From: Candidatus Sigynarchaeum calidifontis
GTDB taxonomy: Archaea > Asgardarchaeota > Lokiarchaeia > Sigyniarchaeales > Sigyniarchaeaceae
Assembly (NCBI GenBank): GCA_030587475.2
Contig: JAUQYZ020000155.1
Coordinates: forward strand, 1 to 23,480
Length of the DNA stretch: 23,480 nt
Direction of reading: 5' to 3'
How positions within the stretch are numbered: the stretch's first letter is position 1; each line of letters begins with the position of its first letter. A model generated the notes under the pieces. The model did no database searches. It was not told where the DNA came from and was given only the letters and a program-made list of their open reading frames with translations. Below, piece by piece: positions 3 through 13,122 of this stretch. The position numbers were made by a program, and so were the translations under genes.

Positions 3-353
3 GAGGGCCAAGAAAGTGCTGCTGTGAGGCTCGTGTGCGAAAATCCCTTGTGTAACTTTATACTTGACGTGCCGCAATCGTTCGCGGGTAAGATGGAGCG
101 AACGGGGAAGAAATGCTTGATATGTCCGATGAATGCCGTCCTTGTGATGGTCAAGGAAGGTACTTCCTTCCATGTATGCATCAACTGTTACAACCAGCAC
201 TTGAAACGCAAGGAGGAGCAAATCGGTTTTTGCTTGGGATGCATATATCACGATGCATGCTTTACGAACGAGCTCAAACGGATAGAGATCAAGGAAAGCA
301 TAAAGGATTTGGTTCGTAAAAGGATGAACGAAGCGTCTATGAACAAGCAATGA
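3..353 (+). CDS. C-terminal Cys-rich (Zn-binding) region of a probable type IA DNA topoisomerase (TOP3B-like tail); 5'-truncated by the window edge
   Basis: The frame is open from position 3 (EGQESAAVRLVCENPLC...). Cys clusters CENPLC, CLIC, CINCYN and CLGC..HDAC have the spacing of topoisomerase IA/III C-terminal zinc ribbons. The catalytic core is not in the window. Confidence 0.55.
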   Translation, partial: EGQESAAVRLVCENPLCNFILDVPQSFAGKMERTGKKCLICPMNAVLVMVKEGTSFHVCINCYNQHLKRKEEQIGFCLGCIYHDACFTNELKRIEIKESIKDLVRKRMNEASMNKQ

Positions 354-2134: not shown

Positions 2135-4879
2135 ATGACACCGCAAGATCCCTTTTTCATAGTTCTGGATCCGACCGGAACGAAGGATGGCACCATCGAT
2201 TGCAATCTCATCGTTTATCCGTTCTTGACTTCTGGCGAGAAGGATAACGTGCTCATTCAAAAGCCATTACACTTATACATTTGTCAATTCTCCGATCAAG
2301 GTAATGCCGAAAGCGACGGCAAGGAAGGCACGCTCTCGGTCGAGAAACTAAGGCCGTTCCGCATCTGGGAGCCACCGCGTGGCAACGAGCGGGACGTGAA
2401 GACCTATTACGATCAAAAACTACTAAAGCGCCTTCTTAAAGAAGCTAGCTTCACGATAATCCCGGCCGACGTGCCTGACAAGCGCCTTGCCGGTTTAGTT
2501 ACCATGTACAAGGATCTCCAACTGAAAGAGATACGCAGGGCCACGTTCTGCTCGTTATGCCGGTCGCGCGCATCGAGATACATCGCCTTGAAAGATGCGG
2601 AAGCTATCCCGCTTGTCAAGGAGGCAAACCAGTACGTGTGCGAGTCTTGTGGATGGAACGTGCTCATTAGCAGGCTCGAAATGAAGGGCGTGAAGATTAC
2701 GGCCGGCTTGCAAGAGATCCTATCAGTTAAATTCAAGAAGATCCGTAATATCGAGAAAATCGAGCGCACGTTCGACCCGAAATGGAATCCCATCGAGGAT
2801 GTCGACTATTCGTTGTATGATGTATGCGATCTCGTGCAAGAACCGCATGTTCCCGTCAACGTCAAGGATATCAAGATCGACCCGGGACTCAAGAATGCCC
2901 TCCTGGCGCAAGGCATCGAAACGTTGCTCCCCGTGCAAGTGAAGGCGATAAAAGAAGGGCTCTTAGACGGCAAGAACATGCTCGTCGCGTCATCGACCAG
3001 CAGCGGCAAGACCTTGATAGGCGAGCTCGCTGGCATCAACAACATCTTGGCAAAAAAGAAAGGCATGTTCGTTTTCGTCGTGCCCCTCGTCGCGCTAGCG
3101 AATCAAAAGTACCAGGACTTCAAGAAACGGTACGGGGACCTGGGGCTAAAGGTGTCACTCCGCGTAGGGAAAAGCCGTATAGACAAGTCTGTCGAGGCCA
3201 ACACAAAGAGCGCGTCGTTAAAGGATGCTGATATCCTGGTAGGCACGTACGAGGGGGTCGATTACTTGCTCCGCGCGGGGAAATCCTCCGCGTTGCCGAG
3301 GGTTTCGACTATCGTGATCGACGAGATCCAGATGTTCAAGGACGAGGAGCGCGGTGTCAGGCTGGATGGCTTCATTTCCCGCATGAAGTTCTTGTTTCCC
3401 GACGCGCAAGTGATTTACTTGAGCGCGACCATCGCTGCCCCCCGGAAACTCGCGCGGAGCCTCGGAGCCACGATCGTCGAGTACAACGAGCGCCCCGTCC
3501 CGATCGAGCGCCACCTTATTCCTTGCTTGAACGATGCAGAAAAACTCAAGATTATAGGTTGGCTTGTAAAGAAAGAATTCCGTAAGGTCAGTTCATTCGG
3601 TTTCAAAGGACAATCGATCATTTTCACAAATTCTCGTCGCACCGTTCATGATATCGTCGATATATTGCGAATAGACGGGATCCAAGCCGATGCATATCAT
3701 TCTGGGTTAACATACGGCGAGCGGGTGCGTGTTGAACGTCGATTCGAGAAACAACAAGTCGCGGCTATCGTTACGACCGCTGCACTCGGTGCCGGGGTTG
3801 ACCTGCCCGCGAGTCAAGTGATCTTCCACTCGCTCGCCATGGGTATAGAATGGCTCACGGTCGCGGAATTCAACCAGATGCTTGGCCGGGCCGGGCGTTT
3901 CCAAAAACATGACATGGGGAAGGTTTACTTGCTCGTCGAGCCAGGAAAGTCCTACCATGCGAGCCAGCAAGGCGAGGAGGACAAGGTTGCATTGAAATTG
4001 CTCAACGGCACGCTGCAAGAGTCCGTACCTGACTTCGACATCGACAAGATCGCCGCCGAAGTGCTCGCGTTCATTGCAATGCGCGGGACAACGACGATCG
4101 ACGAGATCAATAAGTATCACGATGCGCTGTTGACCAAGGCGATCTCTGTTGTAAAGATATTGAACCATCTTCACCAAGCAGAGCTCATCTCCGTCAAGAA
4201 TCAAGGCACGAGCATCACGATCCTACCGGTAGGTCGTGCTATCACCGAAAGCTTCTTGAGTATCGAGGATGGTCTCAAGCTGAAGCAAGCCGTGCTCGAT
4301 TACGAAGAATCTGTCATTGACATTGCGTCGAGTCTGAATCCGCTCAAGAATGTTTACGTGACCGATGCTATCGTATCTGAAATGTCGCGGTATAAGACGG
4401 GCCACGCGGCAATCTCGTCGAAGTTCTTCGGCGGGCAGATCCTCGATTTTATGACCCTTGAACAAGGTCAATTTTCGGGAACGGCGTTGAAGCGCAAGAA
4501 AATGAGCCGGTTCGCCATCGAGATCTTGTCACGGTGGGCAATGGATATATTCACGTGCGAGTGCGATGACAAGCCATACTGCGACCACGGGGTCAAGAAC
4601 CTCGCGCGAATCATGGTTAAACTCCGCCGCCAGAAGCGCCTGGAACCGCGTCAAATTTCCCAGCATCTCCGGGAGACTTACCAAATACAAGTCTACACGG
4701 GCGACGTTTACGAGTTTCTTGATTCTATCTTGCATGCTTTGGACGCCATCCAACGATTCGCCCGGATATTTGAGAATGCGCAGATGCTCGGCGCCGTGTC
4801 ACGCTATCGGGCTTCCATCGAGGATCCAGCCGCCGTCAAGGACGATGCAAGCTCGTGTAAGCCGGATGACGAGGATTGA
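2135..4879 (+). CDS. Archaea-specific superfamily II DEAD/DEAH helicase (ASH-Ski2 / COG1202-like, DUF5814-type C-terminal domain)
   Basis: 914 aa; Q motif LLPVQ, Walker A SSTSSGKT, VPLVALANQK, DEIQ, LSAT, motif VI QMLGRAGR; N-terminal CxxC..CxxC and C-terminal CECDDKPYCDHG. Confidence 0.9.
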   Translation: MTPQDPFFIVLDPTGTKDGTIDCNLIVYPFLTSGEKDNVLIQKPLHLYICQFSDQGNAESDGKEGTLSVEKLRPFRIWEPPRGNERDVKTYYDQKLLKRLLKEASFTIIPADVPDKRLAGLVTMYKDLQLKEIRRATFCSLCRSRASRYIALKDAEAIPLVKEANQYVCESCGWNVLISRLEMKGVKITAGLQEILSVKFKKIRNIEKIERTFDPKWNPIEDVDYSLYDVCDLVQEPHVPVNVKDIKIDPGLKNALLAQGIETLLPVQVKAIKEGLLDGKNMLVASSTSSGKTLIGELAGINNILAKKKGMFVFVVPLVALANQKYQDFKKRYGDLGLKVSLRVGKSRIDKSVEANTKSASLKDADILVGTYEGVDYLLRAGKSSALPRVSTIVIDEIQMFKDEERGVRLDGFISRMKFLFPDAQVIYLSATIAAPRKLARSLGATIVEYNERPVPIERHLIPCLNDAEKLKIIGWLVKKEFRKVSSFGFKGQSIIFTNSRRTVHDIVDILRIDGIQADAYHSGLTYGERVRVERRFEKQQVAAIVTTAALGAGVDLPASQVIFHSLAMGIEWLTVAEFNQMLGRAGRFQKHDMGKVYLLVEPGKSYHASQQGEEDKVALKLLNGTLQESVPDFDIDKIAAEVLAFIAMRGTTTIDEINKYHDALLTKAISVVKILNHLHQAELISVKNQGTSITILPVGRAITESFLSIEDGLKLKQAVLDYEESVIDIASSLNPLKNVYVTDAIVSEMSRYKTGHAAISSKFFGGQILDFMTLEQGQFSGTALKRKKMSRFAIEILSRWAMDIFTCECDDKPYCDHGVKNLARIMVKLRRQKRLEPRQISQHLRETYQIQVYTGDVYEFLDSILHALDAIQRFARIFENAQMLGAVSRYRASIEDPAAVKDDASSCKPDDED

Positions 4880-4944: not shown

Positions 4945-6060
4945 ATGAATATGCAGATTCTCGTCACAGGCGGGCTTGGCTTCATCGGGGGACACCTGGT
5001 CGACAAGCTCGTTGAGAAAGGCCACGCGGTCCGCGTGCTAGATAGCATGGAATTTCAAGTACACCAGGGGAAATTTCCATCCTATGCGAACGCCAAAGCA
5101 GAGTATATCGTCGGAAATATATTAGATCGCGCCACGGTAAAAAGGGTACTCGATGGGGTAGACATCGTGTTTCACGAAGCGGCCGCAGTGGGCGTGGGTC
5201 AATCCATGTACGAGGTGCATCGCTATGTCGAAGCCAACGCTGCTGGCACTGCAATGATCCTCGACGAGATCGTGAACGGCAATCACCCGATCAAGAAATT
5301 CATCGTCGCGGCGAGCAACACGATCTACGGAGAGGGGCTCTATGAGTGCCCGAATTGCGGAAAGATAGAGGCTCCACTGCGGGACGCGGAGCAGATGAAG
5401 CGAAAGGAATGGGATGTGAAATGCCCGAAATGCAAGGCGATCTTGAAGCCGGTTCCAACGCCAGAGACGAAATCACTCGATTCGACCAACGTCTACGCGT
5501 TGACGAAGAAATTCCAAGAAGAGCTCTGCATGAGCATTGGAAAGACATATGGCATCCCCGTGGTGAGCTTGCGATATTTCAACGTTTATGGTCCGCGCCA
5601 GAGCTTGTCGAACCCGTACACGGGCGTCGCTTGTATTTTCATCAGTCGCCTCAAGAACGGCAACCCGCCTTTTGTATATGAGGATGGACTGCAGACACGG
5701 GACTTCGTCCACGTTAGCGATGTAGCCGGTGCCAATATATTCGTGATGGAACATTCAAACGCCGATTATCAATGCATCAACATTGGCACAGGTAATCCGG
5801 TCACGATAAAAGGCCTCGCCGAGCAGATCGCGGCAAAGATCGGCTCCAAGCTGATGCCGACCGTGTCAAACGACGGACGGCCAGGTGACATACGGCATTG
5901 TTTCGCCGACATCGCGAAGCTAAAGGGGCTCGGTTACAAGCACGAGTTTCCAACCCTTGATCTTAACACGCTCGTCGAATGGAGCAAGAACACGGTCGCC
6001 ATCGACAAATTTACCGAGGCAAAGAAGGAATTCGACCATAAACTTGGCATGAAAAGGTAA
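4945..6060 (+). CDS. NAD-dependent nucleotide-sugar epimerase/dehydratase (extended SDR) with a zinc-ribbon insert
   Basis: TGGLGFIG, FHEAA, YALTK (YxxxK), LRYFNVYGP, RDFVHV, RPGDI; inserted CPNC...CPKC. GGTGA SD-like motif upstream. Confidence 0.9.
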   Translation: MNMQILVTGGLGFIGGHLVDKLVEKGHAVRVLDSMEFQVHQGKFPSYANAKAEYIVGNILDRATVKRVLDGVDIVFHEAAAVGVGQSMYEVHRYVEANAAGTAMILDEIVNGNHPIKKFIVAASNTIYGEGLYECPNCGKIEAPLRDAEQMKRKEWDVKCPKCKAILKPVPTPETKSLDSTNVYALTKKFQEELCMSIGKTYGIPVVSLRYFNVYGPRQSLSNPYTGVACIFISRLKNGNPPFVYEDGLQTRDFVHVSDVAGANIFVMEHSNADYQCINIGTGNPVTIKGLAEQIAAKIGSKLMPTVSNDGRPGDIRHCFADIAKLKGLGYKHEFPTLDLNTLVEWSKNTVAIDKFTEAKKEFDHKLGMKR

Positions 6061-6076: not shown

Positions 6077-7375
6077 ATGGCGACGGAAACACAAGACATT
6101 TGCATCGTCGGTGCCGGGCCCGCGGGATCCATCGCGGCCGAGCGACTAGCCCGCGCAGGTGCGCGTGTTTTGCTCCTCGATGGCCAGCAATTCCCGCGTT
6201 ATAAATGCTGCGCGGCGGGGGTTCTCTGGCATGACATCGAGGATTTTCCCGAGATCAAGCCCGTTATCGAGACCTATAACCATGCTATGACGTTTCATTC
6301 CCCGTCTTTTAAACACGAGTTTACCATCCGATCGGACGAGCACTATCTCCTCGGCCAGACCTACCGTACTTTATTGGACAGTCATCTCGCCCAGCTCGCC
6401 AAGAAGGCGGGAGCCGATTTTCGCCAAGGAAATCTCGTTACTGGCGTGAAATTGCTTGATGATCGGCGAGGGATCGTGCTGTCCGTGAAGGATAAGGCAA
6501 CTGGAAACACCTACAGCGTGAGATCAAAGCTCGTGATAGGGGCAGATGGCGTGAAGTCGATCGTCCGGAAATGCCACCCGGACTTCGTACCATGGAACAA
6601 GGCGGACTTGCTCATTGCATCCGAGCTCGATGTCCCGATGGGCGAGCAAAGGATCATCGATATATTCGGGAAAGACAGGACCACGCACATCTTCATGTAT
6701 TTCGACAACCTTCCCGGTTACTCGTGGATCTTCACGAAAAAAACGTCTGTCTCCGTCGGCATGGGCACAATGCTCGAGTTCCAAGGCAAGACCTATGGGG
6801 GAAAGGCGTTGGCCGACAAGTTCAAGGCATTCGTGGGTTTTCTCCAGCAGAAGGGACTGCTACCGCTTAATGCAGCAGATACGTCAAGGACAAACTACGC
6901 CCTCATCCCGTCCGTCTCGCTGAAGGCATCGATCACTCACGGCAGGAATGCCTTGCTCGCGGGCGACGCGGCGGGGGCCTTCGTTTCGGCGCTTAGCGGC
7001 GAGGGCATCTACTACGGCATGTTGAGCGGACAGTTTGCAGCCCAAGTTGCCTCGAAGGCACTCGCCGCGGATGATTTCTCGTCACGGATGCTCGCTGAAT
7101 ATCCCCGATTGTGGCGTGCACGTCTCGAGCGGGAGCTCAACTACCAATACTTCGCGAAGCGGTACATGCTTGAAGTGAAGCGCCGCTGCGAAAAGGCAGT
7201 GCGTTGGGGGGAGAACGACGAAACCATACGGAACATGATGAAAGTATTCTTCACCGGCATCTGGAAAATCGACCGAAACTTTATGCTGCGGTTGTATGGC
7301 CATTACGTGCGGCTAAAAGTAAAGGACCTGTTTGGAATGCTCGGGGAAAAGGAGAATAAAAAGGATTATTCATGA
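6077..7375 (+). CDS. Geranylgeranyl reductase family FAD-dependent oxidoreductase
   Basis: VGAGPAG, FPRYKC, IGADG, GYSWIF, AGDAAG and GEGI motifs; 16 nt after the epimerase stop, so probably co-transcribed. Confidence 0.88.
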   Translation: MATETQDICIVGAGPAGSIAAERLARAGARVLLLDGQQFPRYKCCAAGVLWHDIEDFPEIKPVIETYNHAMTFHSPSFKHEFTIRSDEHYLLGQTYRTLLDSHLAQLAKKAGADFRQGNLVTGVKLLDDRRGIVLSVKDKATGNTYSVRSKLVIGADGVKSIVRKCHPDFVPWNKADLLIASELDVPMGEQRIIDIFGKDRTTHIFMYFDNLPGYSWIFTKKTSVSVGMGTMLEFQGKTYGGKALADKFKAFVGFLQQKGLLPLNAADTSRTNYALIPSVSLKASITHGRNALLAGDAAGAFVSALSGEGIYYGMLSGQFAAQVASKALAADDFSSRMLAEYPRLWRARLERELNYQYFAKRYMLEVKRRCEKAVRWGENDETIRNMMKVFFTGIWKIDRNFMLRLYGHYVRLKVKDLFGMLGEKENKKDYS

Positions 7376-7440: not shown

Positions 7441-7450
7441 CATTTAAATG
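7441..7450 (+). promoter_or_regulatory. Putative TATA box for the BAR gene
   Basis: catttaaatg (TTTAAA core) about 110 nt upstream of ATG 7556; GGAGG SD-like motif at 7540-7544. Confidence 0.35.
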
Positions 7451-7555
7451 CACGGTAGGGGAGATAAACGTGCTATCCAGGTAACCAATTTGACCACCGT
7501 GGTGGCTCGATTGAACCATCGCACGTGACCCTGGAAACCGGAGGCTAATTGAATC

Positions 7556-8230
7556 ATGCCAGGATTCTTTGATAAACTCAAGGGTGGCTTTTCTGACTTC
7601 GTTGCCAAGCTTGCAAATCAAGATGCCGCTTTGAAGAAGGCTATCGACGAGAACAAGGATTTTCTCGATGCGTCGTTAAAACTGGTCAAGGAATCAACCG
7701 AAGCTATCGACGCGCTGAAGGAGTTTGCTGCAAACGAGACCCCCGCGATAAAGCAAGCGTATATTGCCGTTTCGGAGGTGCTCGGCAGCATTGAAAAGAG
7801 CAGGACGGAGCTCGTGACGAAGCTGCAAGCACAATTCCTCGGGCCCTTGAACAAGCTTGCTGACGAGTACAAGAAAGTCGCCAACGCCACCAAGGAGCAC
7901 GAGTCTTCTACGAAGAACCTCAAGAATGCCCAACAAGACCTCGAGAAGTCGAAAAAGAAGCCATCGGAGAAGCTCAAACCGGGGGAGATCGAACAGGCCG
8001 AGATTAAGGTCAAGGCAGCACAAGAAAAAGCAGCCAAGGATCAGGAAATCTTGGCCAGCGTGACCGCGGACTTTGCGAAAATGAAAGTCGCCACGTTGAA
8101 AGAGGTAATCCAAACCCTCGTGATCCTGGAAGGCGAGTTTTACCAGATCGCATCTTCCACGCTCAGCGGTACCAAGGATATCATCGCCGCTATCAATGTC
8201 CAGAAGGAATTGGAAGCGGCGGCAAAATGA
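7556..8230 (+). CDS. BAR-domain superfamily protein (N-BAR-like; resembles FAM92/CIBAR)
   Basis: 224 aa, all-helical coiled coil; N-terminal amphipathic helix (FFDKLKGGFSDFVAKL), helix-2 kink FLGPL, basic tip loop KSKKKPSEKLK; GGAGG upstream. Confidence 0.75.
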   Translation: MPGFFDKLKGGFSDFVAKLANQDAALKKAIDENKDFLDASLKLVKESTEAIDALKEFAANETPAIKQAYIAVSEVLGSIEKSRTELVTKLQAQFLGPLNKLADEYKKVANATKEHESSTKNLKNAQQDLEKSKKKPSEKLKPGEIEQAEIKVKAAQEKAAKDQEILASVTADFAKMKVATLKEVIQTLVILEGEFYQIASSTLSGTKDIIAAINVQKELEAAAK

Positions 8231-8243
8231 GCTAATGTATCAC

Positions 8244-8253
8244 TTGTTTTTTT
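8244..8253 (+). terminator. Oligo-T terminator after the BAR gene
   Basis: ttgttttttt about 14 nt after the stop codon. Confidence 0.4.
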
Positions 8254-8470
8254 CATTCCTTGATTTTAAGTTCCATTTGTGCCATGCACGGGAATCATCA
8301 CCTTTAGAAAGGCGAAAGGACTATTTAACATCAAGGTTGCTTTGGCTTTCGAACTCAAGGGAAGATTCACGTGCCATTAGCTCTTTACCGAATGCAGAAA
8401 AAATAGCAAGGAAAGGTATCCGGTCGAAAACGGTTGACCAAAAACTCCGTACACAAAAATAGTGAATGAA

Positions 8471-8635
8471 ATGACTCTCATACGCGGAAAAACTTGCCCA
8501 AAGTGCAAAAAAGGCGATCGCATTATCGAAATCCAAGACAAATCAAAGGTTTTATATTATAATATGCAAGGCGCACCTCAATATGCCCGGATGTTCAAAT
8601 GTGGGAATTGTGGTGAGCTTTTTAAGCCAGAATAA
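8471..8635 (+). CDS. Small zinc-ribbon protein, 54 aa (not in the ORF track)
   Basis: Manual translation: MTLIRGKTCPKCKKGDRIIEIQDKSKVLYYNMQGAPQYARMFKCGNCGELFKPE*; paired CPKC/CGNC knuckles; followed by a T-rich tract. Confidence 0.8.
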   Translation: MTLIRGKTCPKCKKGDRIIEIQDKSKVLYYNMQGAPQYARMFKCGNCGELFKPE

Positions 8636-12312: not shown

Positions 12313-13122
12313 GTGATTCGCGGGCTGTTCGTGATCAAGCAAGGGATCGCCGTGTTCTCGTGGACGCACGAGATCAAGCTTGACGTGAGCAAGGACTTGC
12401 TGGCCGGTTTCTTGTCGGCCTTGCCCGCTTTTGCGAAAGAAATCGAAGAATCGCAGCAAATCGAGGGTTTCAAACTCAGCGAGTACGTGTTCACGTTCAA
12501 GTCCTTGAAAAACTCCGATGATCCCTCGGGCAACTTCATGGTGTTACTCTCGGACGCGAAAGACAAGGACGAGTCCATCAAGAAGACGCTTGACCTTCTT
12601 GTCCAAGCGTTCGAGGCAAACTTCAAGCTGGAGGACTGGAACAGCAACCTGGATGTCTTCAAGCCGTTCAAGGCCTACGCCGACCAGATCATCCTCAACC
12701 GCGTGCCGGTCCCGCTCGAGCTCTCCCCGGACATGATCGAAACCATCTCAGAAACCATAGCAGAGTCGAAGTACAACTTCCTCATCCTCAACAAGGATAA
12801 CGACATCGTGCTCACGTCGCTCAAGCGCATCTCCAAGAGCTTCACGAGCGACACGCTCAACGACATCAAAGATGCCATCATCCAGTACACGGTCTTCCCG
12901 CCGATCATCGGGTCGAAGCTGGAAACTTCCTTCATCAACACGGACAAGATGTGCATCGTCTTCGATAAAATTCTCGATTCATACTTCATCGCCTTCGTGC
13001 TGAAGGATGATGATGATACCGGCCCGAAAGTGAATGCTTACGAGATGGTAAAGGAAGTTTTCGAATCGCTGGATGAAATCAAGTTTACCTTGACGACCAT
13101 GTTCGTCGTGGAAAAGTTTTAA
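12313..13122 (+). CDS. Longin-like N-terminal domain fused to a putative roadblock/LC7-like domain
   Basis: N-domain MIRGLFVI..GIAVFS...LLAGFLSAL..FAKEI...IKKTL..L...F...F....W....F..F matches the Asgard longin pattern; C-domain has an alpha-beta-beta-alpha-beta-beta-beta-alpha pattern. GTG start. Confidence 0.65.
   Translation: MIRGLFVIKQGIAVFSWTHEIKLDVSKDLLAGFLSALPAFAKEIEESQQIEGFKLSEYVFTFKSLKNSDDPSGNFMVLLSDAKDKDESIKKTLDLLVQAFEANFKLEDWNSNLDVFKPFKAYADQIILNRVPVPLELSPDMIETISETIAESKYNFLILNKDNDIVLTSLKRISKSFTSDTLNDIKDAIIQYTVFPPIIGSKLETSFINTDKMCIVFDKILDSYFIAFVLKDDDDTGPKVNAYEMVKEVFESLDEIKFTLTTMFVVEKF

Follow-up and report, generated by a model that had tools for sequence, protein, structure and literature searches.

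A stand-alone BAR-domain protein of Candidatus Sigynarchaeum calidifontis and its probable kinship with the eukaryotic FAM92/CIBAR family

BAR domains are central tools of membrane shaping in eukaryotes, and their origin is part of the question of eukaryogenesis. The stretch of DNA analysed here (the window; 23,480 nucleotides of contig JAUQYZ020000155.1 of Candidatus Sigynarchaeum calidifontis, assembly GCA_030587475.2) carries on its plus strand a gene for a protein of 224 amino acids (aa), designated P0001, which an earlier note on this DNA had described as an N-BAR protein colinear with FAM92/CIBAR. Computational analysis of P0001 revealed a BAR fold and a specific kinship with CIBAR, predicted that the protein forms a dimer, and showed that the counterparts of experimentally tested FAM92A residues are conserved. 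We put at roughly 0.78 the probability that P0001 is a stand-alone classical BAR protein, belongs to a family of Lokiarchaeia (taken here in the wide sense that includes Sigynarchaeota) whose nearest relative outside the archaea is eukaryotic FAM92/CIBAR, and would act as a curvature dimer.

The open reading frame (ORF) proved exactly as given in the earlier note, and the three-helix coiled coil claimed there was borne out by an AlphaFold2 model based on 55 homologs, which had a mean predicted local distance difference test (pLDDT) score of 94.4 and a predicted template modelling (pTM) score of 0.82. The model, with helices assigned by DSSP, consisted of three long antiparallel helices that together span about 200 residues, as in a classical BAR monomer, and two short C-terminal helices. 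Local confidence fell below a pLDDT of 50 at residues 1-3 only; the score was about 50 over residues 1-10 and rose to 85 over residues 11-20. The gene and the segments of its product are located in the window as follows.

7556-8230, plus strand: coding sequence of P0001, the 224-aa stand-alone CIBAR/FAM92-like classical BAR protein (ORF, ATG to TGA).
7565-7618, plus strand: residues 4-21, conserved amphipathic N-terminal stretch with F4, F5, L8, F12, F15, V16 and L19 on one face, modelled as the first turns of helix 1 (hydrophobic moment, family periodicity).
7565-7729, plus strand: helix 1, residues 4-58, with the predicted dimer core around L43 (DSSP on the model; symmetric contacts 43-43, 36-50 and 33-50).
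7733-7744, plus strand: N-E-T-P turn between helices 1 and 2, residues 60-63 (E61, T62 and P63 invariant in the alignment; ETP at the aligned CIBAR1 position).
7742-7957, plus strand: helix 2, residues 63-134, in which the invariant P97 (codon 7844-7846) takes the place of the proline that kinks this helix in FAM92A (model, alignment).
7946-7984, plus strand: basic tip region, residues 131-143, with K131, K133, K134, K135, P136, K139, K141, P142 and G143 (model, alignment).
7985-8167, plus strand: helix 3, residues 144-204, the C-terminal half of which lies in the predicted dimer core (F195, Y196, A199; contacts 196-196 and 196-199 in the model).
8171-8224, plus strand: a pair of short C-terminal helices (residues 206-211, 215-223) located at the centre of the predicted dimer (model; interface residues 206-223), aligned with the C-terminal IDEDED region of CIBAR1.

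Two motifs singled out in the earlier note found their place in this model. Thus, FLGPL, read there as a proline kink, comprises residues 94-98, of which P97 is invariant in 14 close homologs and lies within helix 2 at the kink position of FAM92A Pro167, while the lysine-rich distal loop KSKKKPSEKLK comprises residues 131-141 across the loop between helices 2 and 3 (135-143), with K131 and K139 kept in at least 90% of 52 diverse homologs. As also expected in that note for a BAR fold, all leading matches to the P0001 model in the PDB were BAR-superfamily domains, both by Foldseek and by VIA-align (Z 14-19). By the latter method, mouse FAM92A (9uhd) ranked first, with a Z of 18.9 and a root-mean-square deviation (rmsd) of 2.6 over 213 aligned residues, and was followed by arfaptin (17.7), SNX1 (17.0), amphiphysin (16.6), endophilin (16.3) and a human FAM92A1 entry (15.8). 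In the ESM Atlas, a FAM92B cluster was the sole fold match to P0001 with a template modelling (TM) score above 0.5 (TM 0.83/0.86, rmsd 2.4, 213 residues).

The kinship with FAM92/CIBAR was evident from searches of all PDB sequences. With P0001 alone (phmmer), CIBAR1 was the sole match, at expectation values (E) of 2.8e-4 and 7.6e-4. With a profile of 14 sequences from Sigynarchaeota and Lokiarchaeota, CIBAR1 was found at 7e-11 and the next family, MIM, at 1.3e-5. A profile of 52 homologs, from which the eukaryote-type FAM92 proteins (a CIBAR1-like protein of Hydractinia, P0070, and two close relatives) had been removed and the remaining members of which were checked for origin in part, matched CIBAR1 chains at 1.1e-20 (77 bits) and 5.7e-20 in a colinear alignment of profile positions 14-213 with chain positions 20-217. 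The next family in this search was amphiphysin, at 8.7e-6 and 28 bits over helices 2-3 only, while SNX/Vps5 chains had E values of 0.004-0.04. By either profile the archaeal family was therefore closer to FAM92 than to other BAR families, and the specific link to FAM92/CIBAR claimed in the earlier note held, as did the block matches to CIBAR1 that were listed there, each of which was present in HMMER alignments to PDB 8ceg_A and 9uhd_A.

Results obtained with the Pfam FAM92 model (PF06730) pointed the same way for the archaeal family. Among 400 sampled Asgard genomes, this model matched proteins at orthologous loci in 45 and passed its curated cut-off in 40, with scores of up to 40.8 bits, whereas none of 14 control genomes was matched and the BAR_3 model was above cut-off in only 4 of the Asgard genomes. 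Scores at or above the FAM92 cut-off were noted for P0018 (37.4 bits), P0062 (25.1 bits) and P0081 (23.6 bits), and no match to the model was found in the genome of P0001 itself. Because P0001 fails the cut-off and its orthologs pass it, P0001 was classed as a divergent relative within the FAM92-like archaeal family rather than as a member by the Pfam threshold. These findings confirm that the archaeal family is specifically FAM92-like and that P0001 is a divergent member of it missed by that threshold.

The family is sizeable. Homologs of P0001 were found at E values from 1e-117 to 1e-21, the named close ones belonging to Candidatus Sigynarchaeum springense (93% identity) and to metagenome-assembled genomes of Sigynarchaeota and Lokiarchaeota, and the family as a whole formed 64 representative clusters at 50% identity among 1.84 billion proteins. 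The confirmed eukaryote-type proteins in these clusters, not every one of which was checked for origin, were three FAM92 only. In the ESM Atlas the nearest cluster to P0001 (score 0.95) was archaeal and carried the automatic name 'FAM92 protein domain-containing protein', and in the reciprocal direction, from Hydractinia CIBAR1, the archaeal cluster ranked above BIN3 and arfaptin.

Correspondence between P0001 and FAM92A was also noted at the level of single residues, counted on the printed alignment to 9uhd_A (chain index + 65 = mouse residue number) and compared with published mutagenesis (PMC12269497). In mouse FAM92A, Pro167 induces a kink of helix alpha2, R201/R203/R205 form one of five basic clusters that contribute to liposome binding, and L113, Y127, F256/I257 and H264 are dimerisation residues tested by mutagenesis (PMC12269497). 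P97 of P0001 aligned with chain P102, that is, with Pro167, and K131, K133 and K134 aligned with R201, R203 and R205, so that both the helix 2 kink proline and the distal-tip basic cluster of FAM92 are present by alignment. Likewise, L43, F57, L188/V189 and Y196 aligned with the dimerisation residues L113, Y127, F256/I257 and H264, K42 aligned with R112 of the central basic patch, and K106 and K113 aligned with K176 and K183 of the peripheral basic regions. By alignment, then, the tip cluster of basic residues is kept and the central cluster partly so (K42, K45).

Compared more broadly, CIBAR1/FAM92A and CIBAR2/FAM92B (PF06730; PDB 8ceg, 9uhd) resemble P0001 in length and in having a BAR domain that begins at the very N-terminus, and CIBAR1 has in common with P0001 the ETP turn, the kink proline, a basic proline-containing tip loop, F195 and the hydrophobic residues of the dimer core. 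The alignment of CIBAR1 to the archaeal family is colinear, with small gaps only in and beside the tip loop. The proteins differ in that identity between CIBAR1 and P0001 is only 16-19% and in that none of the HMMER matches to CIBAR1 included the N-terminus of P0001, which is hydrophobic and amphipathic. P0001 also lacks a C-terminal tail past the BAR domain, whereas the Hydractinia CIBAR1-like protein extends about 50 residues beyond its FAM92 match and a short C-terminal region has been described for FAM92A1 (PMC11266426). Unlike the hosts of CIBAR1, that of P0001 has neither cilia nor mitochondria, and no match to Chibby (CBY1, PF14645), which FAM92/CIBAR binds through its BAR dimer, was found in the 89%-complete genome, a weak test since no control genome matched either.

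Prediction of two P0001 copies gave an ipSAE of 0.77 in three runs, as opposed to 0.00 for the best of three controls; among proteins of solved structure, 20 of 30 that are pairs of one chain attained this value, as did 1 of 23 that are single chains. Contacts agreed between runs to at least 95%, and pLDDT of the partner chain was at least 86. The contacts were symmetric (43-43, 196-196, 36-50). They involved helix 1 together with the first part of helix 2 and the last part of helix 3, as in the antiparallel core of classical BAR dimers; residues 1-17 lay outside the predicted interface. The prediction is thus an antiparallel homodimer through helices 1 and 3, which, as far as the antiparallel pairing goes, is in favour of the proposal in the earlier note.

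Several observations weigh against the reading of P0001 as a FAM92/CIBAR-like curvature dimer. Scored alone against Pfam, P0001 fell below every relevant cut-off, with 13.1 versus 23.6 bits for FAM92 (E 0.067), 24.7 versus 28.5 bits for BAR (PF03114; E 2e-5) and 21.6 versus 31.7 bits for BAR_3 (PF16746; E 2e-4). Because FAM92 here scored below both BAR and BAR_3, the link to CIBAR is clear only with a family profile, and the comparison proposed in the earlier note, in which FAM92 was to score better than other BAR families, went against it on the single sequence and in its favour with profiles. By structure alone FAM92A came first only narrowly (18.9 versus 17.7 for arfaptin), and the second, human FAM92A1 entry, at 15.8, stood below arfaptin, SNX1 and amphiphysin. 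P0001 has a net charge of 0 (35 K+R versus 35 D+E) and retains one or two of the five central basic residues of FAM92A. The dimer score may partly reflect the model's memory of solved BAR dimers, and it speaks for likeness rather than binding. Finally, no neighbouring gene was common to BAR loci across the class (23 loci surveyed) and none pointed to a pathway.

Some of these observations would suit a generic protein of the BAR superfamily without special kinship to CIBAR, whose likeness to it would come from both being minimal, domain-only classical BARs of equal length. Besides the order of the Pfam scores, the VIA-align Z of arfaptin, SNX1 and amphiphysin within 1-2.5 of that of FAM92A and the tied ESM Atlas feature scores of BIN3 and CIBAR1 (0.91) are in keeping with this explanation. 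It is nevertheless improbable, given the gap of 49 bits and 15 orders of magnitude between CIBAR1 and every other PDB BAR in the search with the archaeal-family profile, the colinearity of that alignment with small gaps at the tip loop only, the common ETP turn, kink proline, basic proline-containing tip and F195, the passing of the cut-off by an HMM (hidden Markov model) built from eukaryotes in 40 Asgard genomes as opposed to 4 for BAR_3, and the standing of FAM92B as the only Atlas fold match above TM 0.5. More improbable still is a coiled-coil scaffold that does not act on membranes, such as a cytoskeletal adaptor or a bundle like PspA, ESCRT-III or a chemoreceptor. The zero net charge would fit a scaffold, as would the presence of BAR proteins, not significantly enriched, in a Lokiactin co-immunoprecipitation from L. 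ossiferum (PMC13716822), an observation that would also fit an actin-linked role. The fold matches of P0001 were uniformly BAR, however, the basic residues at the tip, which in FAM92A take part in lipid binding, are conserved, and the significant matches included no PspA, ESCRT-III or chemoreceptor (MCP) family, the best being a pneumococcal PspA at E 0.13. Identity with one of these unrelated coiled coils, which the earlier note had accepted as a refutation, was accordingly rejected.

The term N-BAR was not borne out for P0001. The stretch at residues 4-21 has the highest hydrophobic moment (muH) of the protein (0.62, with a mean hydrophobicity, H, of 0.40 and a net charge of +1), and a moment of 0.59, that of window 3-20, was reached by only 33 of 10,000 shuffled sequences. 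The N-terminus therefore has the strong moment expected of an N-BAR protein, and its amphipathic periodicity is kept across the family, most members of which begin exactly at this segment. What was not found was a separate amphipathic N-terminal helix (H0) ahead of the BAR core. In structural alignments, residues 1-3 of the model were matched to position 26 of amphiphysin, positions 25-27 of endophilin and position 34 of BIN2, and in the FAM92A BAR chains to residue 2. The aligned positions of amphiphysin, endophilin and BIN2 come after the H0 of those proteins. Since the first residues of P0001 are thus in register with the start of the BAR core of N-BAR proteins, P0001 was taken to lack an extra H0, and in the model its amphipathic N-terminus opens helix 1, an arrangement that CIBAR1 has too.

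It is doubtful, then, that P0001 is a true N-BAR protein in which residues 1-20 form a separate H0 that inserts in the membrane and drives tubulation as in amphiphysin or endophilin. That possibility draws on the conserved pattern and peak moment just described, on the position of residues 1-17 outside the predicted dimer interface, and on the pLDDT of about 50 at residues 1-10 together with a G10-G11 pair. It is opposed by the register with post-H0 positions, by the same alignments placing residues 1-3 opposite residue 2 of the FAM92A crystal chains with nothing extra before the core, by the modelling of residues 4-58 as a single continuous helix, and by the loss of G10-G11 in the wider family. 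Human FAM92A1, with its BAR domain at residues 2-211, has moreover been described as a classical BAR protein in a paper that never uses the word 'amphipathic' (PMC11266426). Amphiphysin/BIN and endophilin do have the classical BAR fold (Z 16.6 and 16.3) and an amphipathic N-terminus in common with P0001, which differs from them in having no separate H0 and no SH3 or other effector domain and in its weak profile likeness (28 bits, helices 2-3 only). A short hydrophobic wedge at the N-terminus of P0001, formed by the first turns of helix 1, would be a tentative suggestion.

P0001 is not the first archaeal protein to which a BAR domain has been ascribed. According to PMC4917890, the report of the first Lokiarchaeum genome in 2015 already included a putative BAR protein, and PMC13716822 records two BAR-domain proteins, detected but not significantly enriched, in the Lokiactin co-immunoprecipitation from Lokiarchaeum ossiferum (L. 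ossiferum). Lokiarchaeial BAR proteins have the family and motifs of P0001 (P0016, E 1.5e-49), and a 451-aa tandem protein of L. ossiferum (NEF87_003839/UYP47554) is a member; P0001 represents the single-domain, single-copy form of Sigynarchaeia, whereas several copies, with tandem fusions of two domains among them, are present in L. ossiferum. Vps5-BAR, a retromer-like Asgard protein of the same superfamily for which fusion to Vps28 is frequent in Thorarchaeia (Eme et al., 2023, PMC10307638), belongs to a different subfamily; SNX/Vps5 chains had only the weak E values given above with the family profile, and P0001 has no Vps28 fusion. BdpA of Shewanella oneidensis, another prokaryotic protein with a BAR-like domain proposed to sculpt membranes (PMC8687657), resembles P0001 by description only and was among the matches of none of the searches with P0001. 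The novelty claimed in the earlier note was therefore reduced, BAR proteins of Loki having been reported since 2015 (PMC4917890) and the FAM92 label being present in automatic annotation, while the CIBAR kinship itself was stated in no paper found. No paper naming both FAM92 and Asgard was found in the searchable library, and none of the FAM92/BAR accessions looked for was found in the accessible parts of the supplements of Eme et al. (2023).

Within the sample of 400 Asgard genomes, the family profile matched 60, which belonged to four families of the order of the window and to one further family of its class, and at an E of 1e-5 it matched none in about 30 other sampled Asgard families. Outside the class, the Pfam FAM92 model gave one weak match below threshold (G056, 20.8 bits), interrupted by internal stop codons. 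The archaeal family takes several forms, namely stand-alone genes, three paralogs in a row, two-domain tandem fusions and one fusion to HEAT repeats. The three paralogs stand head to tail in another family of the same class (L016 4241-6711, G128:C3; 225, 253 and 223 aa), and in L. ossiferum the family is represented by two tandem BAR genes of two domains each and by one gene with a single domain (L006 6001-7356, G138:C1). The HEAT-repeat fusion is a metagenomic protein of 467 aa (P0044) in which an N-terminal array (HEAT_2, E 1e-39) is joined to a BAR domain at residues 235-432, possibly an adaptor-like architecture. In a maximum-likelihood tree, the N- and C-terminal halves of the L. ossiferum tandem proteins fell in different subclades and so indicate that duplication and fusion took place long ago and that the repeat is not of recent date.

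The same tree bears on the pre-eukaryotic origin proposed in the earlier note, a proposal that the present results do not carry. Paths within the archaeal family were 2-3 changes per site, and the eukaryotic FAM92 proteins, all hydrozoan, stood on a single long branch (2.5 changes per site) attached to an archaeal backbone that was not resolved. Because hydrozoan FAM92 proteins were the sole eukaryotes included and no other BAR family served as outgroup, the tree cannot discriminate between vertical descent and ancient transfer, nor give direction or rooting. Hydrozoan relatives were all that a word-indexed search with Hydractinia CIBAR1 recovered. Detection of the family in a single Asgard class also counsels caution about a pre-eukaryotic origin. 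It is perhaps possible that the kinship with CIBAR arose by horizontal transfer between an early eukaryote and the ancestor of the archaeal class, in either direction. The confinement of all 60 matched genomes to the class of the window, with nothing beyond it but the one weak, interrupted match, would agree with transfer. The archaeal family is deep and diverse, however, with its 64 clusters, long paths and stand-alone, tandem and HEAT-fused forms; the eukaryotic branch leaves the backbone rather than being nested in a shallow subclade; a FAM92-like cluster of Oomycota in the ESM Atlas (a lead only) hints at a wide eukaryotic range; and absence elsewhere may reflect loss or divergence beyond an E of 1e-5. 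We regard as speculative the converse proposal that the archaeal CIBAR-like family is the direct forerunner of eukaryotic FAM92/CIBAR, and possibly of classical BARs generally, in which case a pre-eukaryotic curvature-sensing dimer would have acted at the necks or bases of actin-driven protrusions, much as CIBAR1 does at the ciliary base.

By homology with FAM92A, we infer that P0001 would bind membranes, would favour positive curvature and would act at correspondingly shaped sites in the cell. Two antiparallel chains would associate by helix 1 and by the C-terminal half of helix 3, giving a core of six helices and two arms of three helices each, with a probable bend at the conserved P97. Lysines of the tip (K131, K133-135, K139, K141) and of helices 1 and 2 (K42, K45, K106, K107, K113) would bind anionic headgroups of the cytoplasmic leaflet, and a shallow hydrophobic wedge may be contributed by the amphipathic first turns of helix 1, which are exposed and conserved. 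Such a dimer would sense or stabilise positive curvature, for instance at necks, at the bases of protrusions, in inward tubules or where the membrane is constricted. The shaping of Asgard protrusions suggested in the earlier note must be narrowed accordingly, in that a concave classical BAR dimer would fit necks, bases and inward tubules and not the negatively curved shaft of a protrusion, which would call for the geometry of an I-BAR.

The P0001 gene is present in a single copy in its 89%-complete genome and is flanked by intergenic gaps of 181 nt on its 5' side and about 230 nt on its 3' side, which suggests, as read from the DNA, that it forms its own transcription unit. The following candidate signals were read from the sequence.

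7443-7449, plus strand: TTTAAAT, candidate archaeal TATA-like box about 107 nt 5' of the start codon.
7540-7544, plus strand: GGAGG, candidate ribosome-binding site 11 nt 5' of the ATG.
8247-8253, plus strand: run of seven T, candidate archaeal terminator 17 nt past the stop codon.

Two ORFs on the minus strand within the gene (7618-8037 and 7694-8113) were rejected as shadows of the conserved plus-strand frame. In Sigynarchaeota the gene order was FAD oxidoreductase, BAR, zinc ribbon of 54-57 aa, Hsp20, DUF72 and hydrolase; conservation of this order was limited to Sigynarchaeota, and it was not found in L. ossiferum. Neighbours that recurred locally among the 23 loci encoded HdrD-like CCG, radical SAM, EMC3/YidC-like and GtrA proteins. 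As no neighbour was common to these loci, gene context provided no functional lead for the BAR family.

Other features of the window were noted in passing, all on the plus strand. Directly 3' of the BAR gene, positions 8462-8635 encode a 57-aa zinc-ribbon microprotein (CPKC...CGNC) with its own T-rich stretch past the stop codon; other Sigynarchaeota have an ORF of 54-55 aa at this place (L002 6845-7009, L004 6959-7126), which is missing in L. ossiferum. Directly 5' of the BAR gene, positions 6077-7375 encode an FAD-dependent oxidoreductase (Pfam FAD_binding_3, weak Lycopene_cycl), and this adjacency is kept within Sigynarchaeota even at 52% BAR identity (L004), which may be plain synteny. The oxidoreductase presumably resembles geranylgeranyl reductases, a likeness that would suggest a link to lipids. 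Further upstream lie a gene for an NAD-dependent epimerase/dehydratase (4945-6060), in which an inserted CxxC...CxxC zinc-ribbon-like segment at about residues 134-163 divides the Pfam Epimerase match into two stretches, and genes for a DEAD/Helicase_C protein with a C-terminal DUF5814 (2135-4879) and an Rce1-like CAAX protease homolog (564-2018), both of which are syntenic in other Sigynarchaeota (L002). Positions 12313-13122 hold an ORF of 269 aa without a Pfam match at E 0.001.

Taken as a whole, P0001 adds one well-supported member to a family that had been noted in Asgard archaea before and is not a new kind of protein, and, the CIBAR kinship being already visible in automatic annotation, the gain is one of precision rather than discovery. 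P0001 offers a clean, single-domain, single-copy archaeal BAR protein whose residues map one to one onto those of FAM92A/CIBAR1, and because the latter is structurally and mutationally characterised, sharp experiments are possible. Members of the family occur in cultivated relatives, L. ossiferum among them, so that its cellular role in these archaea is now testable.

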